A stretch of 64,000 nt of DNA, from the IMG/VR virus record IMGVR_UViG_3300048919_000175, positions 11,900 through 75,899 of that record; one strand, given 5' to 3'. This stretch comes from a virus. The notes beneath the pieces are model-generated. The model made no database searches. It saw only the letters and a list, made by a program, of their open reading frames with translations, and had not been told where the DNA came from. This document shows positions 7,460-55,985 of the stretch, piece after piece. The position numbers and the translations under genes were made by a program. Positions within the stretch are counted from its first letter, which is position 1. Each line of letters begins with the position of its first letter.

Positions 7460-8319
7460 GCTATATCTTCAAGAATGGTATCGATGGTGCAGTGCCGGTC
7501 GGGGAACTTCCCTCCGATGGCTGCTGCCCGCCCGATATCTGCTCTATCGACCCTGACGGGCTGAAATGCTCGATGGTCAGCTTGCTGCCTTCCGGCCCGC
7601 TATGGGACGAGACCAAGCAGCTCGGCGTTCAGAATTGCGATACGTGCGAGCCGTGCGAAGAGCCGTTCATGGACGAGCAATGCGCCAGCCTCGTCTTGCA
7701 TGCGCACTACAAAGGCGCGCTCCTCTATTACTATATCATGGCTATCCTCTGGCCAGCCCTGCGCGAGGCTAATCCGGCCACCGCATGGTCGACAATGGAC
7801 GAATGGCTCGATAGGCTCGGATGGGCTGATTGCTACAACACCTATTGCCGCGACCCAGACTTGGGGCCAATCACGCCTTACGAGATCGTCACGGAATGCT
7901 CGGACCATGAATATTGCCCGCCGGTATTCGGAGAGGAACTAACCCGCATTTACAAGCGCGGAGTTATCCTCGCCCTCTGGCGCATGCGCCATGGTTCTGT
8001 TGAAAATCTTGCAGCGATCAATTTCATCATCTCGTCGCTATACGCCGAAGTGGTCCCCCAAACCGATGCTTTCGGTAAGGTCTGCTTGATCCTTCGACCC
8101 ACTCAGGATTATGCTCCGGTCGTGTTGCCGACGCCTTGTCCTGAAACTGAAAGCACTATACTCCAAGCACAAAAGCAGGTTAAACTCTACCTGACACCCG
8201 GAAACGGATTGTGCATTGGTGGCCCCGACAGAGCCTATCCGCTCGTGCTGGCAGCGCATTGCATCGTCCGTTCGCTGCTACCGATTTGCTGCAATATTTG
8301 TCTGAAGAGACAGCCATAA
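7456..8319 (+). CDS. Baseplate wedge protein (Mu gp48/DUF2313-like), Cys-rich
   Basis: LLPSGPLW and EANPATA..MDEW...LG motifs; 19 Cys in 287 aa. Confidence 0.75.
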   Translation: MSYIFKNGIDGAVPVGELPSDGCCPPDICSIDPDGLKCSMVSLLPSGPLWDETKQLGVQNCDTCEPCEEPFMDEQCASLVLHAHYKGALLYYYIMAILWPALREANPATAWSTMDEWLDRLGWADCYNTYCRDPDLGPITPYEIVTECSDHEYCPPVFGEELTRIYKRGVILALWRMRHGSVENLAAINFIISSLYAEVVPQTDAFGKVCLILRPTQDYAPVVLPTPCPETESTILQAQKQVKLYLTPGNGLCIGGPDRAYPLVLAAHCIVRSLLPICCNICLKRQP

Positions 8320-37162: not shown

Positions 37163-37548
37163 GTAGGCTGGCGGCAGTCCATAGGAGAGAAACTTGGAAA
37201 ACGAAAAATCGTATAAGATGCTCGGCGTATGCCAAGAGCTCAGCCCTACCGGCGCGGCGCAAGCCGGGTTCGCGCGGATGTACAACGCATTGCGGGCTGA
37301 CGGAATTTCAGAGGACGAGGTAATTAACCAGCTGATTTGTGCGCTGGCAGACGGAAGACTTTACGGCAATTGGCCGGGTGCAGCACAACCGGCCACGGGC
37401 AGCAGCAACAACTAGCCCGACGAGCCGTCCCCGCCCTAGAGACCGCCGTGGAGTGGCTTTAGGGCGGCTGGCTAGGGCAATATACCGGCCAGCCCTTGCC
37501 GCACGCCAGAGGGCAGCTCCGTGGCTTTCTGCACTGCATATGGAATTG

Positions 37549-37567
37549 TTAACTTGTCATTAACCAT
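37549..37567 (+). promoter_or_regulatory. CtrA box
   Basis: TTAA-CTTGTCA-TTAACCAT upstream of the DUF932 gene. Confidence 0.75.
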
Positions 37568-37669
37568 TCTGCATTTAGTTCCAGAAAGTGGCTTGCATTA
37601 TTGGACCGAACCATTATGTTGCTCTCATCGGCAACGGAACTGAGACGGTTCCAAAAAGGAGTAATGAAA

Positions 37670-38644
37670 ATGACAGCAGCAGTTGAAAGCATGGCATACG
37701 TTGGTGCGACCCCGTGGCACGGTCTCGGCGCAAAGCTGGAAGGCATTGTCGGCGTTGACGAAATGACGAAGGCCGCTGGCCTCGACTGGCAGGTTTCGCA
37801 GCATCCAATGTTCTGCCAGATCGGCGACGAGCAGGTTGCGATCCCCAACAAGGTTGCGGTAACACGCGACACCGACAAGAAAATTCTCTCGGTCTCTTCC
37901 GACGCATGGAAGCCGCTGCAGAACCGCGACCTGATGGAGTTCTTCCGCGAATATGTGGATGCAGGCGCGGCAACGCTGGAAACGGCTGGCTCGCTCCGCG
38001 ACGGGAAGATCATTTGGGGTCTGGCCAACATCAACAAGGGCTTTACCCTGAAAGGCCGCGACAAGGTTGACGGCTATATCCTGCTCAGCAACAGCCACGA
38101 GCCGGGCTCTTCCATCCGCGTCATGACCACGATGGTCCGCGTGGTTTGCCAGAACACGCTGAGCCTTGCTCATAGCCGTGGCAAGGACGAATATCGCCAG
38201 TCGCACGTCAAGGACTTTGACGTAAGCGCCGCAAAGCAGACGATCGAGCTGGCCCGCGAAGCCGTGGACCTGCACAAGGAAGAGGCCATTGCGCTTTCCA
38301 AGCTGGAGCTCAGCGCCTTCGACGCCATGAAGGTACTTGCCAAGCACTTCCAGCCGGAAATGGCCGAGGACGATCTGGACGTGAAACTGCTGATGCAGGT
38401 TCCGGCCGCACAAAGCCCGGTCCTTTCGGACGTGCTGTACTCGGTTGTCTCAGCGCCCGGCGCACTGCCTGAAAGCGCTTGGGGCTTGCTGAACGGCGTG
38501 ACCCACTACTTCGACCACGTTGCCGGTCGTTCGCCGACGCAGCGCCTGATTAATGGCACGTTTGGCAAGAACTCGCAGGTCAAGTTGGACGTGCGCAAGG
38601 ACCTGCTGGAAATGGCAAACTACGACATGGCCCGCGCCGCATGA
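37670..38644 (+). CDS. DUF932 (TIGR03299-like) phage/plasmid protein
   Basis: MAYVGATPWHGLG, AAGLDWQV, QN, ETAGSL..G, RVVCQNTL, AWGLLNGVT. Confidence 0.85.
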   Translation: MTAAVESMAYVGATPWHGLGAKLEGIVGVDEMTKAAGLDWQVSQHPMFCQIGDEQVAIPNKVAVTRDTDKKILSVSSDAWKPLQNRDLMEFFREYVDAGAATLETAGSLRDGKIIWGLANINKGFTLKGRDKVDGYILLSNSHEPGSSIRVMTTMVRVVCQNTLSLAHSRGKDEYRQSHVKDFDVSAAKQTIELAREAVDLHKEEAIALSKLELSAFDAMKVLAKHFQPEMAEDDLDVKLLMQVPAAQSPVLSDVLYSVVSAPGALPESAWGLLNGVTHYFDHVAGRSPTQRLINGTFGKNSQVKLDVRKDLLEMANYDMARAA

Positions 38645-39055
38645 GCAAGGGTAGATCACATAATCGCAACTCGCGCCGTCTAGCTTTGCTGGCGGCGCGT
38701 GAGGCGTTTTGGAAGCGGGAAGCCGGATACTATCCGCCGGGCAGCACGGGCAAGCCGCCCGTATGGACCCGACTATGGCTCCAGCGGCGCGGCTACCGGC
38801 CATTGCCGAAGGGCTTCAGATTGCCCAAGAATGGCTCCAGAATGCGTTTCGTGGGCGCTGGCTACCATCCTAGCTTTCCAGCGCTGGAGCCGCCAGAGCA
38901 GCCCGTGAGCCGCCTGCATAGATCGGGCGCTAAACCGCCAGTGATCAAATTCATCGAGGCCCCAATCGACGACCATGTCCTTTGGGTCCGCGAAAAGAAA
39001 ATCGAAGAAATATCAAAGTATTTCTTGGTGCCAGACCATTTACTAGGGAAGTGAT

Positions 39056-39484
39056 ATGCTGACGCATTTGCGAATTATATTTCCGATCGAGGCCGATATC
39101 CCCAATCTGTTGCGGTTGGACCGAGACCCCAACTGGCCAATACTTGCGAAAGTCTGGCATAAGTGCCTCCATTGGAATGAAGACGGTGTGCCTAACTACT
39201 TGCCAGACATGGACATCCATGTAGGCGTGGAGCGCAAGCCGGAGACGAGTTTCTTCGGCAAGCTGGAAGTGCCGCCCGCGCAAGGCTTGATCCGTGGCGA
39301 ATATGTGCGGTTTGAGCGTTCGGTCAACGGAACGGCTTGGGGCTGGCTGACCTTTGCGCCGCGCTACGACATGCAAGAAGGCCCGGAGATATGGGCTGGA
39401 GACTGGCACCAAACGTTGCACGGGGAAGAGCCGGGCAGTGCGCTATTCTGCTATAAACTGGAAATTAACCTTGAGAGCGAATAG
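39056..39484 (+). CDS. Hypothetical protein
   Basis: ORF. Confidence 0.5.
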   Translation: MLTHLRIIFPIEADIPNLLRLDRDPNWPILAKVWHKCLHWNEDGVPNYLPDMDIHVGVERKPETSFFGKLEVPPAQGLIRGEYVRFERSVNGTAWGWLTFAPRYDMQEGPEIWAGDWHQTLHGEEPGSALFCYKLEINLESE

Positions 39485-40804
39485 CCCTTGCGCACGCTGA
39501 TAGGTCCATTAAAAGGATTATCAGTCAACAAGGAGAACGCAAATGACTGCAGAATTTCTCAAGCGCAAGGCGATGGCCACCATTGCGCTCATGCATCCGG
39601 AAAGCTTCCGCCCTGAACAGGTGGAGCAGGCGGCTTCGTGGGTTCTGGATAACGTGGCCACAAACGAAGACCTGCCGTTGCGCGATGCGGCGGCACGGTT
39701 CTTCGACGACAACGTGGAGCGATTATATGCGTAAGATGGCATGCTTTACGGTCCAGCTGGAGAACGGGCGCACATGGCGCTCCTGCCTCTATGCCGTCGA
39801 CCAAGCTGAGCGGGTGGCGCGACTGTTGCGCCACCTTGCGCCCGGCGCGATCATACAGTACGCGACGGAGGAATTCAACATTTTCAACACGGCTGGCGGG
39901 GTCATTGACGACTTTGGCCGCTGGCGCATGGAGGACGGAAATGCTCAGGGTCCATTGGGTCAAGACTGACGCAGAGGCTAGGGTTTGGGCGCGCGAAAAT
40001 GCCGGGCAGTTCATGTCGGCGTTGCGTCACCCCTTGGACAACCACGAGGTTATCCGTGGCATGAAAACCGGACGGTTTACCGCCGTTGCGGTATGCATGA
40101 ACATGGCGACCGGCTGGCGCATTGAGCCGAACGAAGCGGAAGTCACCTTTGCGGACGACTTCCCGGACGATGGCCCATGGCGCATTCAGGCGGCGGCGCG
40201 TGTACAGGTTCCAGTGCAGGGCGTCAGGCTTAACAAGGAGCTGATCCCAAGGCAGGTGGAGGCCCCCGACGATGGAGGCGAATAGGTGCAAACTTTGCAA
40301 CCGCATCTTGGCTACAGAAGAAAGCGCAGGTCTTGCGCGGGACTGTGGCGGCGATTGTTGGGGTTGCATCGGCGAAATTGAGGCAGATATGGGCTATGCC
40401 CCGAGCGTGGCCAAGTACAATCTTGAAGTTGAGCAGGGCTTGCGCCATGGCCCGAAGAAAGGTGTATATGATGGCGGGGAGTAGATGCATATACTTGAAC
40501 GTGCCGCCCGACGCCGACGGGGTCAAGCGTGTGCGTTCCAATTGGGCTTACAGGTGCGAATTCCCCGTTCCTGAATACCCATTGCCGGTAAGCGTTACGC
40601 GATACTACGATTTCAAGTGGCCTCCTATCAAGTCCCAAGTGATAGCGCCCGAGTGCCAGAAATGCCCGTGCTTCACTGCGAAGGCGGAACCCGTCGGGGA
40701 TTGGTTGCTGTGAAGCATTAACCATAACCCGAATAGGCTATTGCGCTTCGAAATGGATCGTGTACTGTGAACGCATAAATAAACAAGCGTTCAGGAGAAC
40801 GAAC

Positions 40805-41497
40805 ATGAGCAAGGTGAATGTTGAGAAGTTGAAGCGGAAGATCGCTGCCCTCCTTGCGAAGGCGGGCGGCACTGACAATCAGATTGAAGCGGAAGCATTT
40901 GCTGCCAAGGCGCAAGCATTGCTGACCGAGCATCAGCTGGAAATTGGCGACGTGGTCAAGACCGACCCGATCGAGCGGACCGTGATCTTTGTTGGCCCCA
41001 AAACCAAGAAGGACTGGCACGGCCTGCTGCCGAACGCGATCGCCAAATATTACGGCTGCAAGTGCGTTGCGTTCCACGAGCAGGGCATTATTGCTTACAC
41101 GGCGGTAGGCCGCGAGAGCGGTCGCGTCATGGCGGCGGAAATGTTCCCGTTCCTGCTGGAGCAGGTACGCCTGAAAGCGCTGGAATACCAGAAAGTTACG
41201 CTGTTCAGCCGCAAGCGTTGCATGAACGACATTGTGCATGCTTTCGTGTTGCGCCTTCAGACCCTGATCAAGGCTCAGGAGACCACGGCGGCGGCAACTG
41301 GCGGGCATAGCCGGGCGCTTGTGCTGGTAGACGAGGCCGAAGCGTGGATGAAGGAACACATTAACGACCTGACGCCCGGCAAACGGACCACGTTGCAAGT
41401 CAACGGGCTTTCGGAAAAGCTGGCGGGCGAAATTTCGCTGGCAGGCCAGATTACCGACGGCGACGACGGCAAGCCGCTGGCCTTGGAACACCATTAA
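40805..41497 (+). CDS. DUF2786-domain protein
   Basis: KIAALLAKA...EAEAFAAKAQALL..H. Confidence 0.75.
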   Translation: MSKVNVEKLKRKIAALLAKAGGTDNQIEAEAFAAKAQALLTEHQLEIGDVVKTDPIERTVIFVGPKTKKDWHGLLPNAIAKYYGCKCVAFHEQGIIAYTAVGRESGRVMAAEMFPFLLEQVRLKALEYQKVTLFSRKRCMNDIVHAFVLRLQTLIKAQETTAAATGGHSRALVLVDEAEAWMKEHINDLTPGKRTTLQVNGLSEKLAGEISLAGQITDGDDGKPLALEHH

Positions 41498-41502
41498 CAG
41501 AA

Positions 41503-41632
41503 TAGGGCAGGTATTCAACTCTCCTGCCCTAACTGCCTTGGGGACTTAGCCCTGACCCCGCAAACCGACCCAAGGCATGGCTTCCGCCCGTGGATGTAAC
41601 AAATCATCCTTCCACGGGCGGAAGAGCCGTTT
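41503..41632 (+). ncRNA. Three-hairpin intergenic structured RNA / attenuator candidate
   Basis: Stems 41503-11/41523-31, 41534-42/41569-77, 41581-94/41611-24. Confidence 0.4.
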
Positions 41633-41650
41633 TGCAACCGTGGAGCGAAA

Positions 41651-42304
41651 ATGAGCGATATTGATAAAATTAAGCGCGTGCTAATGGAGCAGCACGGCGC
41701 GGACCAATTCAACAGCTTCGAGTTTGTCGGCGGACCGGGCAATACGCTGGTCAAGTTCGACACCTTGGGCGATTGCTGCATTGCGCTGGTCGACCCCGCT
41801 TGCCGCGTGATTTGGGCGCACTCGCTGGCCTGCCGATATGAGGGAGCCGCCGCGCCGAAAAAGTACATGCATGAGCTGTTCGAGGAAGAAGAGCAACGCA
41901 TGGTTGATGCAGCCCGCGTGCGCCCGGTAACGCTTGGCGAAGTGAAATTCCATCTTGGCTTGCCGCCGAGCAGTAACCCGACGCTTATGGCAGCAGTACA
42001 GAAAGCCACAGAGCAGCCCGTGGAAGCGCTTGCACCTAGCTTGGCTAGTGAGGTACTGGCAGAGGCCTTGGACGCGCTGGACGGCTACAGAAAAGGCGAG
42101 CAGGAGGGGTTCATTACCCCTGAGGCCATGCGGTTGCTGACCGACTGCCACGGCTACGATTTCAAGCTGAACGTGCGCGGTGACGAGGCCCTGTTCTGGC
42201 GCGGCGGCGAGTATATCTGCAAGCTGCCGTATGTCAAAGGTTGCGGGTTTGAAATATCCGTTGCTTCCGAGTTCCTCGACGGAGAGCGCATTGTCGTACA
42301 ATAG
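41651..42304 (+). CDS. Hypothetical protein
   Basis: GGAG RBS. Confidence 0.55.
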   Translation: MSDIDKIKRVLMEQHGADQFNSFEFVGGPGNTLVKFDTLGDCCIALVDPACRVIWAHSLACRYEGAAAPKKYMHELFEEEEQRMVDAARVRPVTLGEVKFHLGLPPSSNPTLMAAVQKATEQPVEALAPSLASEVLAEALDALDGYRKGEQEGFITPEAMRLLTDCHGYDFKLNVRGDEALFWRGGEYICKLPYVKGCGFEISVASEFLDGERIVVQ

Positions 42305-44387
42305 GCGCACTGTACTTGAAAACAACTTGCTGCGCCGCCTTGATAAACTTAAGGCGGCAAAGCTGTTCTTGGACCATTGCTATATCCTCCGACGGCAGGG
42401 CAAGCCGCAACGCATTGTTGAGGCCAAGAACGATATTCTATTCTGGAAGCGGCAGGCGGACAACGCCGCACGCGATTTGCTGAGGGACATCGATAGTGAC
42501 CAAAAATCTGCAGGTTCTCGTTAACCGTAATCGCACCGAGCTGAATTTACTGATTGCCCGGCGCGAGGAAATGGATAGGCTGATCCGCGAAAAGGTGGAA
42601 CACTTGAACCGGCTCAAGGCCCTTGGCTACGAGCGCGGCGAGGAGGCAGTATGACGCTTGCACAATTTCTCAATGCCGAAGCTACCCCGGCGAACATTGC
42701 CGCCATTCTGGCCACGGCTGAGCGCGAAATGGACGTGCTGTACGCGAATGGCGGTCACGTGCTGGATGCAAACCATGTGCCGATTTTCGATCGATCCGAC
42801 GTAGAGCTGAGTTGCAGCTACGGCGGCGGCACAACCGTCATGGTTGAATACGGCAGGCGCAAGGCCCGTCGCCGGAGACCATACCGGATTTATTGGGTGG
42901 CTGATGAAGGCCGATGGCACATGGCCAGCGACAACGGCGACCCCGTTGTTATCGCTTACAATCTCTGGTCACTCGTTGACATGGCCCATGGGCACCCACG
43001 GTTTACGGATTAATCAGCCATGATCGAAACAATATTCTGCATTGCATTCTTCTACTGGTTCATCGCTGGCACGTTAACCGGCAGTACCGACCCGCGCGTG
43101 CAAGTGCGCGAGACGATAGAGTGGCTGATGAAGGACCCGAGAGGTAAAGATTAACCATGCCGGGAAAACCGCCAAGAGAAGGCTTGCCAGACACTGGATT
43201 TTCTGGGATACCGGGATGGCTAAGGATTTTCATTTTCGTTGCGGTCTGTGCCACGGGCGGCATAGGCGGCGCGATGATAGCCGGAAAGGTGATACCGACG
43301 ATGAAACCAATTTTGCTGGCATTCGTGCTGCTGCACAACACGCCGACCGGGCAGGACGAGGTCATGCGCCTTGTGGTCCCGGAAGAGCAGTGCTTGCGCA
43401 TGGAAAAGCAAGTATGGGCCATTGATTGGCCCGTGGTAGCCTATCCCCAAGGGATGCAAGCTTTGGGCGAAGATGGCAAGCCGGAAGAGATACCGGTAAC
43501 GGATGCGGCGTGCTTGCCCTTGGGGCAGGGACATATCACGAAAGGACCAGTGCAGTGACGATTTTCCAGATGGACGACGGCTGGACCGACCACAGTTCGG
43601 AAGGCCCGTGCCTTGAGAATTACCAGAAGGCCGGTTACACGGTCTTCAAGGGCATTGGCGACAAGGAGACGCGGATTATCACCCCAAAGGAGCGCGAATT
43701 TGCGCGGTGCGGCAGTACGGAAGTCGCGCGGGCCATCGTGGACAGTCTGGTAATTGTGGACGAGCTGGCAAAGACCAAGGGCAAGCCGAAAGTAAGGTTC
43801 ACTGTCGTCAAACAAAGGCAATGGAACCCGCGCGTGTTGCGGCATGACGTTGTAGACAATCAACTGCAGATGGAGGTCTTTCACTGGTATGGTGAGACCG
43901 GCAAAGCCAAGTGCGAGGCAGTCGCCGCCGCGCTAAACGCCTTGGGGCATGAAAGGGATTAGCTATGAAAACCGAATACCATGTTCTTGGGTGGCTAACC
44001 ATTAGGCAGTTCGCAGACGCCATTCGCGGGCTCGGCGATGGCTGGCGGCTCATTGCCCAAGGCAAGACGCCCGGCTCTTCCGGCGATGAGCATTTCGACT
44101 GGCTGCTATGCCGCGAGGAGCCAGAGCCGGTTGAGGCCATTGTCTACGAAATGCGTTTGGAGAACGTGTTCATGCACCATCACGAAAAGGTGGAGCAGCT
44201 CGCGGCGGATGGCTGGCATGTGGTTAGCTCATTGTCCGTTGTAGACAGCGGCAGTCCGCGCCACAACGTCCTGATGCAGCGCCGCAAACCGCCCGGTTGC
44301 GACCACGACTGGGAAGACGGATTTAGCATGAATGGGCCGACACGGACGTGCCGCAAGTGTGGCAAGTGGGAGAGAGATTGACACAGA

Positions 44388-44422
44388 AAAGCCCGGCTCG
44401 CTAGGGATCGAGCCGGGCTTTC
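44388..44422. terminator. Bidirectional terminator
   Basis: AAAGCCCGGCTCG-N8-CGAGCCGGGCTTT. Confidence 0.8.
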
Positions 44423-44577
44423 AGCCTATTGGGAGGAGGCCAGTCGCCGTGGAGCGCAAGTGGACCATAGCACGGCCAGCGCGCCGCGCAACAGGATTTG
44501 TTAACCATATTGGTGACTTGCCCTTGCAACCGGGCAGGTAATCAGTATTGTTGATTTCAGTCAACAAGGAGAACGTT

Positions 44578-44796
44578 ATGTCGTACCTAATCAAGCGCCA
44601 ACAGGCCCTTGCCGCAATCCTCAAGGCCCTTGGCCCGCATGCCGAAAATGTTGCTATTGGCATTTCTGTCAATGGCGTTAATGGCGTGGTCCGCAATATG
44701 GGCAAAACCGACTTGCAGGCAATTGCAAACCTTTCTGGCATGCCAGCGCACGTTTACCCCGCCTTGGGGCTTATCGAGTGGCAGGTGGACCCCTAA
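44578..44796 (+). CDS. Small early protein
   Basis: AAGGAG RBS after cassette promoter. Confidence 0.6.
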   Translation: MSYLIKRQQALAAILKALGPHAENVAIGISVNGVNGVVRNMGKTDLQAIANLSGMPAHVYPALGLIEWQVDP

Positions 44797-46026
44797 TGGC
44801 AGTCCGCAAAGGCGACCACGTTTACGTGATGGACAAGGGCGCTCGCTATTATGTGACGCGCCAAGGCCGCGTGCACCTGCCGCGCTGCTATACGGATGTC
44901 ACGGCAAAGCTTACCGAACGGGAACGGTTGCGCATACGCTACCGAGCGATGAAGAAGTGGAGCAAAGCATGAACAGTCTGGCATTACTGAACAAGGCCCG
45001 GCAGTTGCGCCGGGCGACCGTTGTCGCGTTTGATTGCGACGGATGCATGGCCCATGACCACAAGCTGAAATGGATTGGCCATGTGGTCAGCGTCGGTCCG
45101 GGACTGGAAGGCGTACATGTGCGCGTCATCAAGGAGCCTGCACGCGGGCCGATGGACGCCCGGGACACCGACCTTGGGACAAAGCGGTTGGCAGTTGAGG
45201 ACACTTCCCTGCAATGGGTCGCGCCCGGCCTTTTCTTCTGGTATAGGTGACCGATGCGCAAATTCTTCGTGCGGCTGCTGGTAGCGGCTAACGTTTTCTC
45301 TGCAGCCGTGGCGGCGCTGCTTATAGCGCTGACGTACCTGCCATGAGTGGGCGTAAGTGGCGTTTGCGCAGTTCTCAGCGCTACCAAACATGGACCGGCT
45401 CGTGGGTCGTGACCGCCTACCATACCGGCGCGGTCGTGTTCCCTTGGGCGCTGGAGCTCAGCTGGAAGAACGAGAAGATTACCGGCTTCCGCACGCTTAA
45501 GGCTGCTCAGACCGAAGGCGCACGGCTGCTGGAAGAAAAGGAATGGGAAGGCGCTGGTCGTTAACCGCTTGTTAACAGATTGGCGCTATGGTGCGCTCAG
45601 TCAACAAGGAGCAACGCACATGGAAACGGTTATCGTAGTTTACACGGTCGTGGTCGCGCTGGTAGTCGGCGGCGGCATGTGGTTCACGCGCGGGATGAAG
45701 CTGTGAAGCTGGAAGATGTTAAGGACATAGACCTGCTACGGGCAGGGCTGGTTTCTATTGACGAGCTTGAGCATGATGGCGCGGTAATCGCTGCCTTCGA
45801 ATGCGGCTTGATCGCGCCCGTACACGATTGGTCCAAAACCCTTGGGGACTTGGCCGACGAGCCGCCTTACCAGTTCTGCAGGGATTGCGGGACCGTGCGT
45901 CGCAGCCCATGGCCGATGGACCCCAACCAACGGAAATTAAGCGGTCGTTAACCATACGCCGACAAGCCGGTTGCGCCTGTCGTGGAAATCAGTAGAGTGA
46001 TCTCAGGTTAAACGGAGAACACGGCA

Positions 46027-46221
46027 ATGAAGACTTACACCCTTGAAATTTCCTACCTGAACGGCGACATGGCCCGCAGCAGCCAGACCTGCAAGTACCT
46101 TGGCGTGCTGATAAACAACGCCGAGCGCAAGGTTGCGGAAGTTATGCAGTCTAACAGCAAAGCAGCGTTGAAGCGCGAGGCCGCGACCTTTGGCGATTTC
46201 GACCTGCTGGACAAGGCTTGA
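46027..46221 (+). CDS. Small early protein
   Basis: GGAG RBS after cassette promoter. Confidence 0.6.
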   Translation: MKTYTLEISYLNGDMARSSQTCKYLGVLINNAERKVAEVMQSNSKAALKREAATFGDFDLLDKA

Positions 46222-46329
46222 CGCCGACTATTAACCGGTCGTTAACCATAGCCGAACAGGCCCCAAGTTTGGGGCTTGCATGGCGCGTGGAAATCAGTAG
46301 AGTGAAGTCACCAACAAGGAGTGACGCAC

Positions 46330-46524
46330 ATGACCAAGTTTATCGTAGTTCTCATGTTCAAGAACGCCAAGCGCCCGGCTTACGATGCGGGCGTCTATCC
46401 GGCCGTGCACGCCAAGAAGTACGCCGACCGCTACGACAGCCGCGAGGCCGCTGAGCGCGTTGCCAACCGGTGGGAGCGCTCGTGGTTGCAGCCGCGCACG
46501 ACGATTGAAGAGGTAGCCGAGTAA
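46330..46524 (+). CDS. Small early protein
   Basis: AAGGAG RBS after cassette promoter. Confidence 0.6.
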   Translation: MTKFIVVLMFKNAKRPAYDAGVYPAVHAKKYADRYDSREAAERVANRWERSWLQPRTTIEEVAE

Positions 46525-46700
46525 TGGAAAAGGTTGTTGCCGCATTTGCCGCCAATCCGGCGCTTGAGACCGCCCTGAGAGTGCACGCGCACTTGGCAAA
46601 GCACCCTATGGCCGAATGCATGGCCACGGACGCTCAGCGGGCTTTGATTTACCGTGCGCGGCTGATCGCCGCTGGCCGAGACCCCAAGGAGGTTATGTAA

Positions 46701-46913
46701 ATGTTTAATTTTCGTAGCGCCAAGCATGGCGGCATCTGGTTCCTCTCGTTCGGACGCCTGAATATCTCGTTCAGCGTGACCAGCCGCGCCACCTATGAGC
46801 GCCGCCAAGCCGAGCAGCTGGAGGCCCGCATCGCGGCAATCATGGCGGCTGATCTGGCCGAGGCCCGACGCGTGGACCTGTTTGCGGCCGAGCTGCTGAA
46901 AGCCTGCCGTTAA
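46701..46913 (+). CDS. Small early protein
   Basis: AAGGAGG RBS. Confidence 0.55.
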   Translation: MFNFRSAKHGGIWFLSFGRLNISFSVTSRATYERRQAEQLEARIAAIMAADLAEARRVDLFAAELLKACR

Positions 46914-47030
46914 CTCGCCGTTAACTATAAGTGGATAAGCGGGTCTGGGAGGGGTTTACCTTCCCGGAGAAATCAGTATTGTGATCTCCATGAGCAACGG
47001 CGCTGAGGCGCAAACCTGATGGAGATTAAA

Positions 47031-47243
47031 ATGGCTGCTGCAAACTTCAACCGCGAATTCACGATCGAAGCCCCGAAGACCTATGCCACCAAGGAAAACA
47101 GCCAGAAGGCAGTTGCGAAGAAGCAGATGGAAGGCTACCGCCATTTCCATATGCAGAACGCTGAGGGCCGCTGGTTCCCGGTCTTCGTTGGCATGGAAGC
47201 GATGCAGAACGGTATTCACTTTCACTTCAACGTTGTGGCCTGA
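47031..47243 (+). CDS. Small early protein
   Basis: GGAG RBS, strong codon bias. Confidence 0.65.
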   Translation: MAAANFNREFTIEAPKTYATKENSQKAVAKKQMEGYRHFHMQNAEGRWFPVFVGMEAMQNGIHFHFNVVA

Positions 47244-47304
47244 GGCCAAGGCGGAAAGTGCCTCCCTGCTGACGCAGGGAGGGCCGCTGAGGGCGCTGAC
47301 GCGC

Positions 47305-47814
47305 CTAGAGAATAGAGCGGGCTTGCTTGGCTTGCAGCGCCACGACCTGATCATGGGTCATGGTAATGCGGCGCTGCGTGACCGTAAGCTTGCCTTCCGC
47401 GTCGTACGTCTCGTCCTCTTTGATGCGGTAGTAACCGCCATTACCGTCCTGATAAATGAAGCTCTCGCGCTCCTGCTTGAGCTGCGCTTGCCGTTCGGTA
47501 TTCTTGCGATTGAAATGTTCCCGCCGCGCTTGGTCAACTGAGCGCAGACCGGCCTTCCAGCCGCCGTATCCGCGCGCCGTGTAGTCTGCATCCACCATGC
47601 GGAAGTCAACCCGTATGGCCTCAAGGAAGGCCTCTACCTTGGCCTTGTCGGCGTTATGGTGGCGTGCCAGTAGCAGGAAATTCTTTTCCATTAGATCGAT
47701 CAGGGCGGTCGTTGCTGCCTTGGTGCGGTCGTATTGTGCTTGGATTTGTCCCATAAGCTCATCTGCCTCATGCGGCGGGTTCTGCCTATACGGGTGATAT
47801 GTTGTATTAACCAT
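47305..47814 (-). CDS. Hypothetical protein
   Basis: AGGAG RBS; coupled to the upstream ORF. Confidence 0.55.
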   Translation of the reverse strand: MVNTTYHPYRQNPPHEADELMGQIQAQYDRTKAATTALIDLMEKNFLLLARHHNADKAKVEAFLEAIRVDFRMVDADYTARGYGGWKAGLRSVDQARREHFNRKNTERQAQLKQERESFIYQDGNGGYYRIKEDETYDAEGKLTVTQRRITMTHDQVVALQAKQARSIL

Positions 47815-48110
47815 TACTTTCTCCTGTTACGTTCTCGTAGTTCTTGGTAGTAAGCATATCGCCCGGTCTGGTCGCGCTTGGGCTTTGGCGTGCCCTTAAT
47901 GCGCTTGTTGACCATGCTTACGGTATCCGCAACGCTATCACGAATTTCCACGTTCCACTTGCGCATCTGCTGGTAGCGCGGCCATACGTCGTCAGGCGCG
48001 CCGGTCACGGCTAGAAGGGCATGCCGGGCTGTTGCCGTCCGCCATGACTGGAGGGCATCCAGCACGTCTTGGTAGGCGTTTTCCATGGCATCAAAATCGT
48101 CTTGGCTCAC
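47814..48110 (-). CDS. Hypothetical protein
   Basis: GGGAG RBS, GTG start. Confidence 0.5.
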   Translation of the reverse strand: MSQDDFDAMENAYQDVLDALQSWRTATARHALLAVTGAPDDVWPRYQQMRKWNVEIRDSVADTVSMVNKRIKGTPKPKRDQTGRYAYYQELRERNRRK

Positions 48111-49010
48111 TGATTATCTCCCATGGCCCGTGGGCCTTTTGGTATGGTTTTGTGGCGAGTTCACATTGGACAGCTTGTATTTTGTGAGGCCGCTGGCAAA
48201 TTATTACAATATTAATAACCTAGTAGCAAGGCGGAAGACCATGGGCTAGTTGTAAGTCATTGCATTGATAATGGGCAAAGGTTGGGTTTGTAAGGAAAGT
48301 AAACCAAGGTGCATGGATGGCTGTTTTGCGACCTTGGCCCATTGGCCCCAACAAAAACAAGGAGTTGCGGAGCGAAATGTAGATCACAAAGCATTACCGT
48401 TTATATACTTGCTTTGTTATGAGGCTGTAAAATTTTTTTAGCCATTAGGAATTAATTATTATAAAAAGTAGTAGTTAAAATAGTAGTATAGGACAAACCA
48501 AGGTCGTGAGCGGTAATGGTTTGTACTTGCCGCACGCCCGGCATTTCCGAATTCTACTGTCGCGGCTGGCCAATATACGATTTTCCAGACCCGCTTAGAG
48601 AACTGCCTGTTTTGGGAATTTGGTTTAACCTTTCGTCGCTGAGGCCGGTAGGCTGGCCAATACTTGGGCGGCACCCGCACCTCTCCCTCTCATTCTCGGC
48701 ATTTAGACGACCGTCCTTTTGTACATACTGACTAAAACATGTACTTAGTACACTTTTGCCCTGCACCATGGGCCTAGCGCCCTGCACCTTGCCAGCCTAG
48801 ACATGCGCACACTGCCACAGAGACAGTCAAGGAGCGCAATGGGCCATGGCCCTAGTACCATGCACCCGCCAGCGTGCTAACGCGCTGTACGGCCTGCTCC
48901 GTGGCAAACAAACATTCAAGGAACGCTATGTAGTTCCATAATGCATGTTATGCAACAACAGCAAAAGCTAATATAACCCCTGCCGCTGGCCCTCGGCACC
49001 CTAGACATGC

Positions 49011-49026
49011 TTAACAGATCGTTAAC
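49011..49026 (+). promoter_or_regulatory. CtrA box
   Basis: TTAA-CAGATCG-TTAAC. Confidence 0.65.
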
Positions 49027-49220
49027 GCATACAATTTAATTAAAATGCCACCAAATCGATCTACTCCTAGCGACGATCTAGTGCCCCGCTGCGTCGCGTC
49101 TCCGTGTCTTTTAAATTCCACCAGAATTCTTTTCAACGAAAGGTTGTACGTTTTAAAACCATGCCGGTTGGGAATTGGCCATGGACGATTTGCAGAAAAC
49201 AGTTTTCCAATTTCCATGGT

Positions 49221-49258
49221 AAAAACACCTTGTATTTTAGCCAGTCCTCCCTTATACC
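49221..49258 (+). promoter_or_regulatory. Operator copy 4 + sigma70-like promoter upstream of the Y-RNA-like gene
   Basis: AAAAACACCTTGTATTTTA; TTGTAT-N17-TATACC. Confidence 0.6.
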
Positions 49259-49370
49259 TACCCCATGCGCCATGGGCGATCGGAGAAGGCACCGGGCCGA
49301 CAGCCCGTGCGATGGTATCCTTTCGTTTGTCAAACTTGGCGCTAACTCGATGGCCCGCCGAATAAAGCGA

Positions 49371-49493
49371 TAGCCATCACATGACGAAGTGCGATATGCG
49401 AAGGTCGGCGGTTCGAGCCCGCCCATGCCCGGAAGGCCGTGTAATCTCAGCTGGTAGAGGGTCACATACCGCACGTGCCGTCTGCAGCGGCTA
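49371..49493 (+). ncRNA. YrlA/Y-RNA-like circularly permuted tRNA mimic
   Basis: GACGAAG motif, long stem, AGGTC, T-arm GGCGG-TTCGAGC-CCGCC, acceptor stem closed by GGAA, D-arm TCTC-AGCTGGTA-GAGG. Confidence 0.8.
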
Positions 49494-49501
49494 GTCTCTC
49501 A

Positions 49502-49533
49502 AGGCCCATGGCAACCGGAGCCATGGGCCTTTT
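49502..49533 (+). terminator. Rho-independent terminator of the Y-RNA-like gene
   Basis: AGGCCCATGGC-N7-GCCATGGGCCT-TTT. Confidence 0.8.
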
Positions 49534-49561
49534 GCATTTACAGAACGATCAGGAGCAAACA

Positions 49562-49948
49562 ATGAGCGATAACTACCAAGCAATCTACGACGCAGTGCGA
49601 TCGAGGTTCAGCAATGTCGACGCCAACCAGATCATTCGCGAGCATGTCTCCATGCTGACCAACTCTGCCGGTCATGCCCTCGACATGGCCCGAGCCAATT
49701 TCGATAGCATGCTAGGGGAGCATCAGCGCCCTTCTGTGCTTTATCGGCCAACGCTGACGCAAGACGGCGATCACTGGCTCGCGATCTATGGTGATTTGCA
49801 ATCCGGCGTCGTTGGGGCCGGTCGCACTCCCGCTCAAGCCATGCAGGCGTTCGATCAAGCTTGGCACAAGCCCGCCGTGGCACCACCCAAGCTAAAGCCG
49901 AACAACTGGCGCGCTCCGCCTCCGCCGAAAGAAAGTTTCATACCATGA
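49562..49948 (+). CDS. Hypothetical protein
   Basis: AGGAG RBS; GVVGAGRTPAQAMQAFD. Confidence 0.65.
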   Translation: MSDNYQAIYDAVRSRFSNVDANQIIREHVSMLTNSAGHALDMARANFDSMLGEHQRPSVLYRPTLTQDGDHWLAIYGDLQSGVVGAGRTPAQAMQAFDQAWHKPAVAPPKLKPNNWRAPPPPKESFIP

Positions 49949-54281: not shown

Positions 54282-54335
54282 GCTCGGGGCGTAATTGGCT
54301 GGCCCTTGCTCCGGGTCGATAATTTGGAGCGGGAT

Positions 54336-55985
54336 ATGGTAGCGATTGTCGGATGCAGACCGGTTTGTGAAGAGATCGAGCCGGTATCGCTACCGGGCAA
54401 CGACATGCCAGCCCCTCCCGGACCGTCCGGTAGCGGCAATAACATTCCCGACTTCGACCCTTCACAGAGCTATGACTTCCCAGAAGTCGTCGTGCACAAT
54501 GGCGTCATTTACCGAGCCTTGGGACCGATCGCCCCTGGACCATTTGACCCGGCCGATTGGGAAGCGCTGGACAATTCCGGCGGCGGCGCAACAGTCGTCA
54601 CAGAAGATACAGCGACCGCCACCATCGGCGGCGACGGCTCGGCCGGAGACCCACTGACCGTTGACGTCAATGTTCAGGCATTGACCAAGTGGGGCGCAGG
54701 GCAGCTCATCCACGTTGATGCAATTCGCGGTGTCGATGCGCTCACCCAAGATGCATCGATCTTCATGCCGTATCAGACGGTCGGCTTTGCGCTTGCGCAG
54801 GCGGAGACTTCTGACGTCATCCTGCTCGCGCCCGGCACCTATGTAGAAAACGTCGCATTTGTATCAGACGTCGTCGTGCAGGGCTTCGGCCCGAACGATG
54901 CCAACCCTGTGATCATTCGCGGTCATCACACGATCGGCGACGGCATTGCTCGCGTGCGGCTCAAGGACCTACAGCTAGTCGGCACGGCTGGAGCTCCGGC
55001 GCTGGTTGTCGCGAACTCGGCTGGATCGCATACGCTCGACAACGTCTCCATCAGCCATGCAGACGGACCAACGGCCACGGCTGTTCAGTTTACCGGCAAC
55101 AATCAGAGCTTCATGACGCTCAACGATGGTTCCATTGCCGGTGTCTTATCTCTGCAAGACCCGCTACAGGTCTCAGCGTTCGCGCTGATCTTGCGCGGTG
55201 GCTCAGAGCCAACGACAGTTCTGTTCAACAGCGCCCCGGTGCAGCTCTCTATCATCGATCACATCCGGCTCGGCAAGATCACGCACGGCGCTGGTCTGCT
55301 GTTGATCGACAGCATTGGCTATATCATCCAGAATGGCGGCGTCTCGCTCGTCTCGACCGCGAGCGCGGCCAATGGCGCACTGTTCATGAAGAACGTGACC
55401 ACTATCCAGCCGAACGGCAGCTATGGGGCGATCCAGAAGACCGGAACCGCCCCATATATGATGCTTGGGGTCAAGTCCGATCCGCTGGCTGCGGACTTTG
55501 CCGGGCTTAACTTGCTAGGAGATAATGCCAAGCATGTCCATGCTCAGTATCAGCCGGTCAACTACTTCCCGCTATCGGCTTCCGTGCGCGATCATTTAAA
55601 GGCGATCGATGAAGCGCTTCCGTTCAGCGCTGACGGGCGCACAGTCGTACATGAGATCGTGGTTTCGCGCCCCGGTCCAGTTCTGGAAGATCAAATAATC
55701 CTGGATTATGTTGCGTCGAAGCCGATCACGCTTAAAGCTAGTCTTCCCGACATTCAGTACAAGTTCCGTGGTACGGCAGGTCAATCGGTCACGCTCAACC
55801 TGTTCAGGAATGATGTTGCCATTGGTGACATTACGATCGACACAACTTCGATCAACATCAATTTCGCGGTTGATGTTGAGTTCCTCGTAGGAGACGTTTT
55901 CACTGTTTCCGCACTAGAGGATGCAGCATTTTCTAACGTAGCTTTGACGCTTCAGGGCTTGCGTCAACTGGACTTTGTAGCGTAG
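54336..55985 (+). CDS. Virion fibre protein (CBM-like N-terminus, pectin-lyase-like beta-helix)
   Basis: VVHNGVIYRA...W; PYQTV..AL..A...DVI.LAPGTYVE. Confidence 0.6.
   Translation: MVAIVGCRPVCEEIEPVSLPGNDMPAPPGPSGSGNNIPDFDPSQSYDFPEVVVHNGVIYRALGPIAPGPFDPADWEALDNSGGGATVVTEDTATATIGGDGSAGDPLTVDVNVQALTKWGAGQLIHVDAIRGVDALTQDASIFMPYQTVGFALAQAETSDVILLAPGTYVENVAFVSDVVVQGFGPNDANPVIIRGHHTIGDGIARVRLKDLQLVGTAGAPALVVANSAGSHTLDNVSISHADGPTATAVQFTGNNQSFMTLNDGSIAGVLSLQDPLQVSAFALILRGGSEPTTVLFNSAPVQLSIIDHIRLGKITHGAGLLLIDSIGYIIQNGGVSLVSTASAANGALFMKNVTTIQPNGSYGAIQKTGTAPYMMLGVKSDPLAADFAGLNLLGDNAKHVHAQYQPVNYFPLSASVRDHLKAIDEALPFSADGRTVVHEIVVSRPGPVLEDQIILDYVASKPITLKASLPDIQYKFRGTAGQSVTLNLFRNDVAIGDITIDTTSININFAVDVEFLVGDVFTVSALEDAAFSNVALTLQGLRQLDFVA

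Follow-up and report, generated by a model that had tools for sequence, protein, structure and literature searches.

The window analysed here, a 64-kb stretch comprising bases 11900-75899 of a viral record, contains a ~830-nt region without any coding-like ORF (48730-49561), located between a cluster of small genes and the gene at 49562-49948. All ORFs across 49011-49561 appear non-coding by codon usage, and 49562-49948 appears coding; the RNA described below was therefore placed within a non-coding island. The RBS and ATG of gene 49562-49948 begin ~25 nt past a terminator. The following features were assigned to the island (window positions):

49221-39, + strand: promoter/operator-like motif of 19 bp, which contains a -35-like TTGTAT (49230-35)
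49253-58, + strand: -10-like TATACC, 17 nt after TTGTAT
49264-49370, + strand: putative 5' leader, if transcription begins after the motif; non-coding in all frames by codon usage, with an ambiguous fold
49371-75, + strand: 5' strand (TAGCC) of stem P0, read from the sequence; its partner is GGCTA at 49489-93, and this short pairing could be due to chance
49383-89, + strand: GACGAAG, which matches the YrlA Ro60-handle motif GNCGAAN0-1G and occupies the same Rfam model positions as the consensus ggCgaA
49383-86, + strand: 5' strand (GACG) of stem P1, 4 bp, paired with CGTC at 49479-82
49389-401, + strand: 5' strand of helix P2, which replaces the anticodon stem; its partner is 49462-74
49402-06, + strand: variable loop AGGTC (AGGUC in the RNA, A44-C48), with C48 able to form a Levitt pair with G15
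49407-23, + strand: T arm GGCGG/TTCGAGC/CCGCC, with a 5-bp stem and the loop UUCGAGC
49424-41, + strand: acceptor-like stem CATGCCC/GGCCGTG with a GGAA tetraloop, 6/7 pairs, no free CCA end
49424-30, + strand: 3' strand of the acceptor stem, C66-C72
49431-34, + strand: GGAA loop
49435-41, + strand: 5' strand of the acceptor stem, G1-G7
49442-44, + strand: linker U8-A9 and one extra A, which the Rfam alignment gives as a one-base insertion
49445-60, + strand: D arm TCTC/AGCTGGTA/GAGG (UCUC/AGCUGGUA/GAGG in the RNA), carrying A14, G15, G18, G19 and A21
49461, + strand: G26
49462-82, + strand: 3' strands of P2 (49462-74) and P1 (49479-82), with GUGC between them, opposite AA of the 5' side
49489-93, + strand: 3' strand (GGCTA) of P0
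49501-37, + strand: intrinsic terminator, composed of a 12-bp GC-rich hairpin (49501-31) and a subsequent T-run

Within the RNA module (49383-49482, + strand) the elements of a tRNA occur in permuted order: variable loop, T arm, an acceptor stem closed by GGAA, UA(A), and D arm. The anticodon arm is absent and in its place a 13-position helix runs into P1, the two stems being separated by the AA/GUGC internal loop. The positions that a preliminary description had assigned to the variable loop, T arm, acceptor stem, D arm, P2, its extensions and GACGAAG were each recovered in the sequence, and its 13-bp stem with two mismatches replacing the anticodon arm corresponds to the 11/13 pairs formed by 49389-401 and 49462-74. 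All canonical tRNA tertiary-contact bases are retained: U8, A14, G15:C48, G18, G19, A21, G26.A44, U54-A58, U55, C56 and G53-C61, with G46 over C13-G22 and A9 over U12-A23 also in place. Three imperfections were noted in the head, namely a C.C mismatch in the acceptor stem (49428/49437, tRNA position 3:70), a U.G pair opening the D stem, and the extra A after A9; P2 is also mismatched.

The T-loop/D-loop signature was found once in the window and in 0/100 shuffles, and in a fixed register only 0.1% of the window 13-mers pair equally well with the P2 5' strand (p ~1e-3). The GNCGAAN0-1G motif alone has a ~3% chance of occurring in a 30-nt span. The proposed fold of 49383-49482 (-31.6 kcal/mol) is 0.3 kcal/mol from the minimum free energy structure (-31.9 kcal/mol). 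Free folding of this 100-nt core recovered P1, P2 and the T arm, with ensemble probabilities of 0.98, 0.89 and 0.78, respectively, and of 0.24 for the acceptor stem and the D stem. Folding z-scores of the region were not significant and, with no homologue of the phage RNA, there is no covariation and no sign of selection. The support for the structure therefore comes from the tRNA/YrlA pattern of this single sequence, and not from stability or covariation.

No tRNA or tmRNA gene was found by ARAGORN in the window or in the whole genome, which also lacks a tRNA array, and the Rfam tRNA model (RF00005) gave no match in the RNA region at E values up to 10. A standard tRNA was rejected, since the RNA has neither an anticodon arm nor paired free acceptor ends; attP-remnant and tandem-tRNA readings were likewise rejected on anatomy. 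Alphaproteobacteria have permuted ssrA genes, and in these, as in the phage RNA, the T arm is followed by the 3' strand and then by the 5' strand of the acceptor stem. It is nevertheless hardly tenable that the locus is a circularly permuted tRNA gene or a two-piece tmRNA gene maturing to a translation-competent RNA: ARAGORN, which is able to detect permuted tmRNA, finds nothing, there is no anticodon loop and no encoded CCA, the ~40 nt between the D arm and the terminator leave no room for a tag reading frame, position 3:70 is C.C and not G.U, and the canonical D arm differs from that of tmRNA. Phage tRNAs can protect against defences that cleave tRNAs, and the preliminary description had proposed a decoy for nucleases of this kind. 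The closed 13-position helix that runs into P1 offers no anticodon loop to be recognised or cut, and it is for this reason very improbable that the RNA serves as a decoy substrate for anticodon nucleases of host defence.

The permuted order, the long basal stem, the tertiary contacts and the motif bear out the YrlA-type architecture proposed in the preliminary description. The YrlA family is represented by Rfam RF02553 (PMC4201824, Chen et al. 2014, where the Y RNA motif GNCGAAN0-1G was defined; structure in 10.1101/312249, Wang et al. 2018). Hallmarks of the family include a location at most ~4 kb from a Ro60/Rsr (TROVE) gene of the same orientation, binding by Rsr, for which GNCGAAN0-1G close to the 5' end is a proposed contact, and the modified bases pseudouridine-55 and dihydrouridine. 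At gathering thresholds, no Rfam match was obtained in the window. A search with the YrlA covariance model, which the preliminary description had called for, aligned the RNA over its full length (model positions 1-114) with a score of 23.9 bits, against a gathering cut-off of 69 bits (E = 0.012 in 701 nt and 3.2e-4 in the genome). In this alignment the motif, T arm, acceptor stem, UA and D arm all land at their places in the YrlA model.

For calibration, the model was applied to RNAs adjacent to TROVE genes. Their scores were 28-85 bits, almost all under the 69-bit cut-off: 38-46 bits for those of Kitasatospora, a Brevundimonas MAG and a planctomycete MAG, 28.7-85.3 bits in seven alphaproteobacteria, and 28-80 bits in twenty genomes from the order of the Brevundimonas MAG. 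Since TROVE-adjacent YrlAs mostly fail the cut-off too, a score of 23.9 bits does not exclude membership in the family, although it lies below every TROVE-adjacent YrlA collected and within the range of tandem tRNAs in Ro60-less control genomes.

A separate observation concerns the annotation of the family. The Rfam cut-off misses nearly all TROVE-adjacent YrlA-like RNAs (mostly 28-53 bits, five above 69 bits) of genomes G006, G008, G009, G075, G187, G282, G377, G378 and G398 and of the 20 genomes from the order of the Brevundimonas MAG. These RNAs often occur as 2-4 tandem paralogues and have at least two types of handle, GGCGAAUGC and GGUGGUGAAGAG. Because most Ro60-adjacent YrlAs are missed in this way, the YrlA family is badly under-annotated.

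The TROVE-adjacent YrlAs of alphaproteobacteria start with GGCGAAUGC and end with UUGUCGCC; the phage RNA starts with GACGAAGUGC and ends with GUGCCGUC. As read from these termini, the design of the phage handle is that of the classical alphaproteobacterial YrlAs, including the CG.C partner strand. A metagenome scan for CGAAG upstream of T/D loops yielded 71 non-tRNA modules, 62 of which read G.CGAAG. TROVE was found in 38/70 of these loci, usually ~0.5 kb downstream and on the same strand, and in most of the TROVE-less loci the flank is too short to tell. A recurring metagenomic sequence type (L290 1907-1982, L305 and L354) also fits the T/D-loop pattern, with no TROVE nearby; the L290 match falls within a 291-aa ORF.

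The phage RNA was further compared with 16 non-redundant TROVE-adjacent YrlAs, a set chosen with a pattern derived from the phage RNA and with flanks too heterogeneous to align. In this set the T and acceptor stems covary and the closing pair C66-G7, which the phage RNA shares, is invariant. The D stem GCUC/GAGC is near-invariant, its first pair being G-C in 15/16 and A-U in 1/16; the phage RNA departs from this with UCUC/GAGG, and has the linker UAA versus an exact UA. Of the family assignment made in the preliminary description, the layout and the handle have stood, whereas the sub-threshold score, the deviating D stem and the lack of Ro60 adjacency set the RNA apart. In architecture and ancestry, it in all likelihood belongs to or derives from the YrlA class, of which it is a minimal, divergent form. 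We infer this ancestry, as well as the transcription of the RNA and its folding in vivo.

The terminator that had been predicted downstream is present as the 12-bp hairpin and T-run. The promoter that had been placed upstream is more ambiguous: a sigma-70 scan gave no consensus promoter for the RNA, but a recurrent motif with TTGTAT, followed by TATACC, lies at 49221-39. This motif, TAAAATACCTTGTATTTTA, has five + strand copies with at most two mismatches (window 26747-65, 30249-67, 37144-62, 49221-39 and 50618-36), compared to 0 expected by chance. One copy is situated ahead of the tRNA mimic and another ahead of the non-coding stretch that follows, and for this reason TAAAATACCTTGTATTTTA probably acts as a phage-specific promoter or operator. 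Farther upstream, a 120-nt non-coding stretch (49053-49172) is 78% identical to a sequence of the related phage G001 (L011 1501-1618, - strand), and the sequences downstream of it are wholly different in the two phages. This stretch may be a conserved regulatory or RNA element heading a variable non-coding island.

The succession of a promoter-like motif, a ~270-nt leader, a terminator and, ~25 nt on, an RBS and ATG could also be read as a cis element of the downstream mRNA, acting as a tRNA-like processing (RNase P/Z) or stabilising signal or as an attenuator of read-through into 49562-49948. We consider this improbable, given that the L004 and L005 homologues of the downstream gene lack a leader of this kind (nor was the RNA found beside them), that no alternative antiterminator pairing was seen, and that all architectural elements of a trans-acting Y RNA are present in the module. 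The provirus record L004, which has the downstream gene, contains two other structured RNAs with scores above the Rfam cut-offs, an RT-15 RNA (7792-7981, 162.7 bits) and a Proteo-phage-1 RNA (1793-1872, 56.1 bits).

The source genome (75,899 bp, GC 55.4%) has 127-bp direct terminal repeats (DTR) and was estimated by CheckV to be 100% complete. It encodes a DnaE-type polymerase, a primase and a helicase, as well as a terminase, portal, protease, capsid and baseplate proteins. The preliminary description had reported no TROVE/Ro60 or RtcB gene in the 64 kb, and this was extended to the complete 75.9-kb genome: no TROVE/Ro60 was found by a six-frame Pfam search, none by tblastn with nine diverse TROVE proteins (best E value, 0.06), and RtcB was absent as well. 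The orphan status of the RNA, against which a Ro60 gene elsewhere in the genome would have counted, is thus upheld. Neither DUF7873 nor any other candidate partner was detected with Pfam among ~64 ORFs. A divergent Ro60 among the large unannotated ORFs was considered and rejected: the 559-aa protein encoded at window 54306-55985 has no Pfam or PHROG match, but is a tail-spike homologue (PDB 8fqc_P1, E = 5e-24; 9rkv_M, E = 3e-30), and the others are structural or replication proteins.

Neither the RNA nor TROVE is present in the three closest phages (G001-G003; DnaE 62-76% identical, all complete genomes). The syntenic place in G001 contains unrelated sequence, and only the stretch at 49053-49172 upstream is common to both phages. 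The exact T/D signature of the phage RNA had no further match in IMG/VR and metagenomes, a looser pattern in IMG/VR matched only two tandem-tRNA loci, and blastn-short of the RNA against ~400 fetched loci returned only tRNA T-arm matches and no donor-like sequence. The RNA is a singleton accessory element, and the lack of it in the three closest phages is in keeping with a host-specific accessory gene.

The same singleton status, with the absence from the closest phages and from the syntenic site of G001, would also be compatible with a recently captured YrlA copy, functionally neutral or undergoing decay, or with debris of a rearranged tRNA, neither of which would contribute to infection. The mismatches in the acceptor stem and P2, the U.G pair in the D stem, the extra A and the lowest Rfam score among the YrlA-like RNAs point in this direction. 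Useless DNA is rarely kept by phage genomes. As the tertiary-contact bases are all intact, the RNA is flanked by a recurring regulatory motif of the phage and by a strong terminator, and no donor-like sequence was found, we regard a neutral copy as unlikely.

The host of the phage was approached through regulatory sites and virion proteins. CtrA boxes (TTAA-N7-TTAAC) were observed nine times versus 0.12 expected, and because of this excess of an established CtrA site the host is very probably an alphaproteobacterium. The nine matches lie within window 37548-49026 (e.g., 45561-76, 46910-25 and 49011-26), mostly in the small-gene arm upstream of the RNA, and point to CtrA control of phage early genes. 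The homology of the tail spike to PDB 8fqc/9rkv was also counted toward an alphaproteobacterial host, and a virion protein of the phage has distant kin among Rhizobium and Agrobacterium phage proteins.

TROVE was found in 7/401 sampled genomes of Alphaproteobacteria, in 0/401 genomes of the order of Martelella alba, and in 21/301 genomes of the order of a Brevundimonas MAG. Owing to this rarity, a Ro60-positive host is possible but not the default, and the idea, put forward in the preliminary description, that the RNA hijacks or decoys host Ro60 is weakened. Capture of the RNA from a host would imply that this host possessed Rsr, and an origin in a Ro60-carrying phage would not require Rsr in the host.

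A pattern scan of IMG/VR, filtered with ARAGORN, identified 14 more viral loci with sealed-acceptor tRNA-like modules, a count that leaves out L203, whose spacer contains CCA and resembles a tandem tRNA. TROVE was searched for in 13 of these 14 loci and in L203 (L188 was left out), and was found in 6/14 of the records searched, L203 among the six. The 8/14 records without TROVE are mostly fragments, with the exception of L149, a complete 145-kb DTR genome. Four YrlA-like mimics in records lacking TROVE are situated within tRNA arrays of large phages: L144 4065-4119, L149 4305-4357, L169 225-275 and L218 8286-8331. The handle of the L149 mimic is CAGCAAAU, and not GNCGAA.

These data bear on a possible Ro60-independent function, in which the RNA would be a tRNA-elbow decoy or sponge: the head alone would work, the handle would be a leftover of YrlA ancestry, and the target to be titrated or recruited might be, e.g., PNPase, RNase P, a modification enzyme or a tRNA-sensing defence or stress protein. 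TROVE is rare or was not found in the likely host groups, YrlA-like modules without TROVE occur in other phage records, including the complete 145-kb L149, and several of these orphan modules sit in tRNA arrays. It has also been found by EMSA that Y-like RNAs of phage phiLo bind PNPase without Ro60 (PMC12135203), and an unknown factor was proposed to bind the conserved D and T stems of YrlA (10.1101/312249). On the other hand, the exact GNCGAAN0-1G and its partner strand are kept at the right place, no candidate partner was identified, and the D stem deviates from the conserved sequence of YrlA by which a factor of this kind would recognise the RNA. Taken together, such a decoy appears nearly as likely as a Ro60-dependent function.

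The reading that we favour, with a probability of roughly 0.35-0.4, is that of a trans-acting Y RNA whose function depends on Ro60, through host Rsr and an elbow-binding or PNPase-type effector. The phage encodes no Ro60, RtcB or known partner, and the RNA must therefore act on host proteins or without Ro60. The locus would represent a phage gene that stands alone and encodes a minimal Y RNA of the YrlA class, i.e., a tRNA mimic combined with a Ro60-type handle. Transcription would probably start from the motif at 49221-39 (or processing would generate an RNA of ~49371-49493) and end at the terminator 49501-37. The 100-nt core would adopt a tRNA-shaped head, made up of the T arm, the sealed acceptor stem and the D arm, would carry the long GACGAAG stem in place of the anticodon arm, and would have host proteins as its targets in trans. 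Where an alphaproteobacterial host encodes an Rsr/Ro60 ring, as a minority do, the handle could load onto it, and the tRNA-like head could engage a tRNA-elbow-binding factor or PNPase. Handle and head together would then gate or redirect Rsr-dependent RNA decay or repair of the host during infection. We infer every one of these binding partners.

It is conceivable, albeit doubtful, that the RNA belongs to a wider class of partner-less phage YrlA-type mimics without phage Ro60, which would either commandeer host Rsr-PNPase or serve as Ro60-independent tRNA-elbow decoys. The present RNA would then be the minimal example of this class, with a single head and a single handle, in a genome devoid of tRNA arrays.

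To date, the definition of Y RNAs has been tied to Ro60 as their partner, and a lone Y RNA carried by a phage would point two ways. The RNA half of the particle could serve as a weapon against, or a key to, the Rsr/PNPase decay and repair machinery of the host. Alternatively, the tRNA-like head may have a Ro60-independent target, which would correspond to the unknown factor proposed from the YrlA structure. With a well-delimited 100-nt RNA in a small, tRNA-free genome, the phage would provide a convenient object for partner pull-downs.

The phage RNA has in common with YrlA the permuted head (variable loop, T arm, sealed acceptor stem, UA, D arm), the tertiary-contact bases, the lack of a CCA end, GNCGAAN0-1G on the 5' strand, and paired 5' and 3' ends, which form the long stem replacing the anticodon arm. 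It differs from YrlA in lacking a Ro60/TROVE gene both within 4 kb and in the rest of its genome, in the absence of a V stem-loop and of the YUAY box (AUAU is found instead), in its single continuous 13-position P2, in the U.G pair with which the D stem begins, and in the extra A after A9.

Phage-borne modules of Ro60 and Y RNA have been described in mycobacteriophages, Caulobacter phage CcrColossus, Bacillus phage G and Thermus phage phiLo (PMC4201824, PMC12135203), and all phage Y RNAs that we found in the literature accompany a phage Ro60 (PMC4201824, PMC12135203, PMC7824862). Unlike these modules, which carry their own Ro60 beside the RNAs, the present phage has none. Together with a phage Ro60, Y-like RNAs of phages assemble into complexes with host PNPase (PMC12135203), and the modules were proposed to co-opt this host enzyme. 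What the present locus shares with them is a phage-encoded Y-like RNA with a CGAA-bearing handle.
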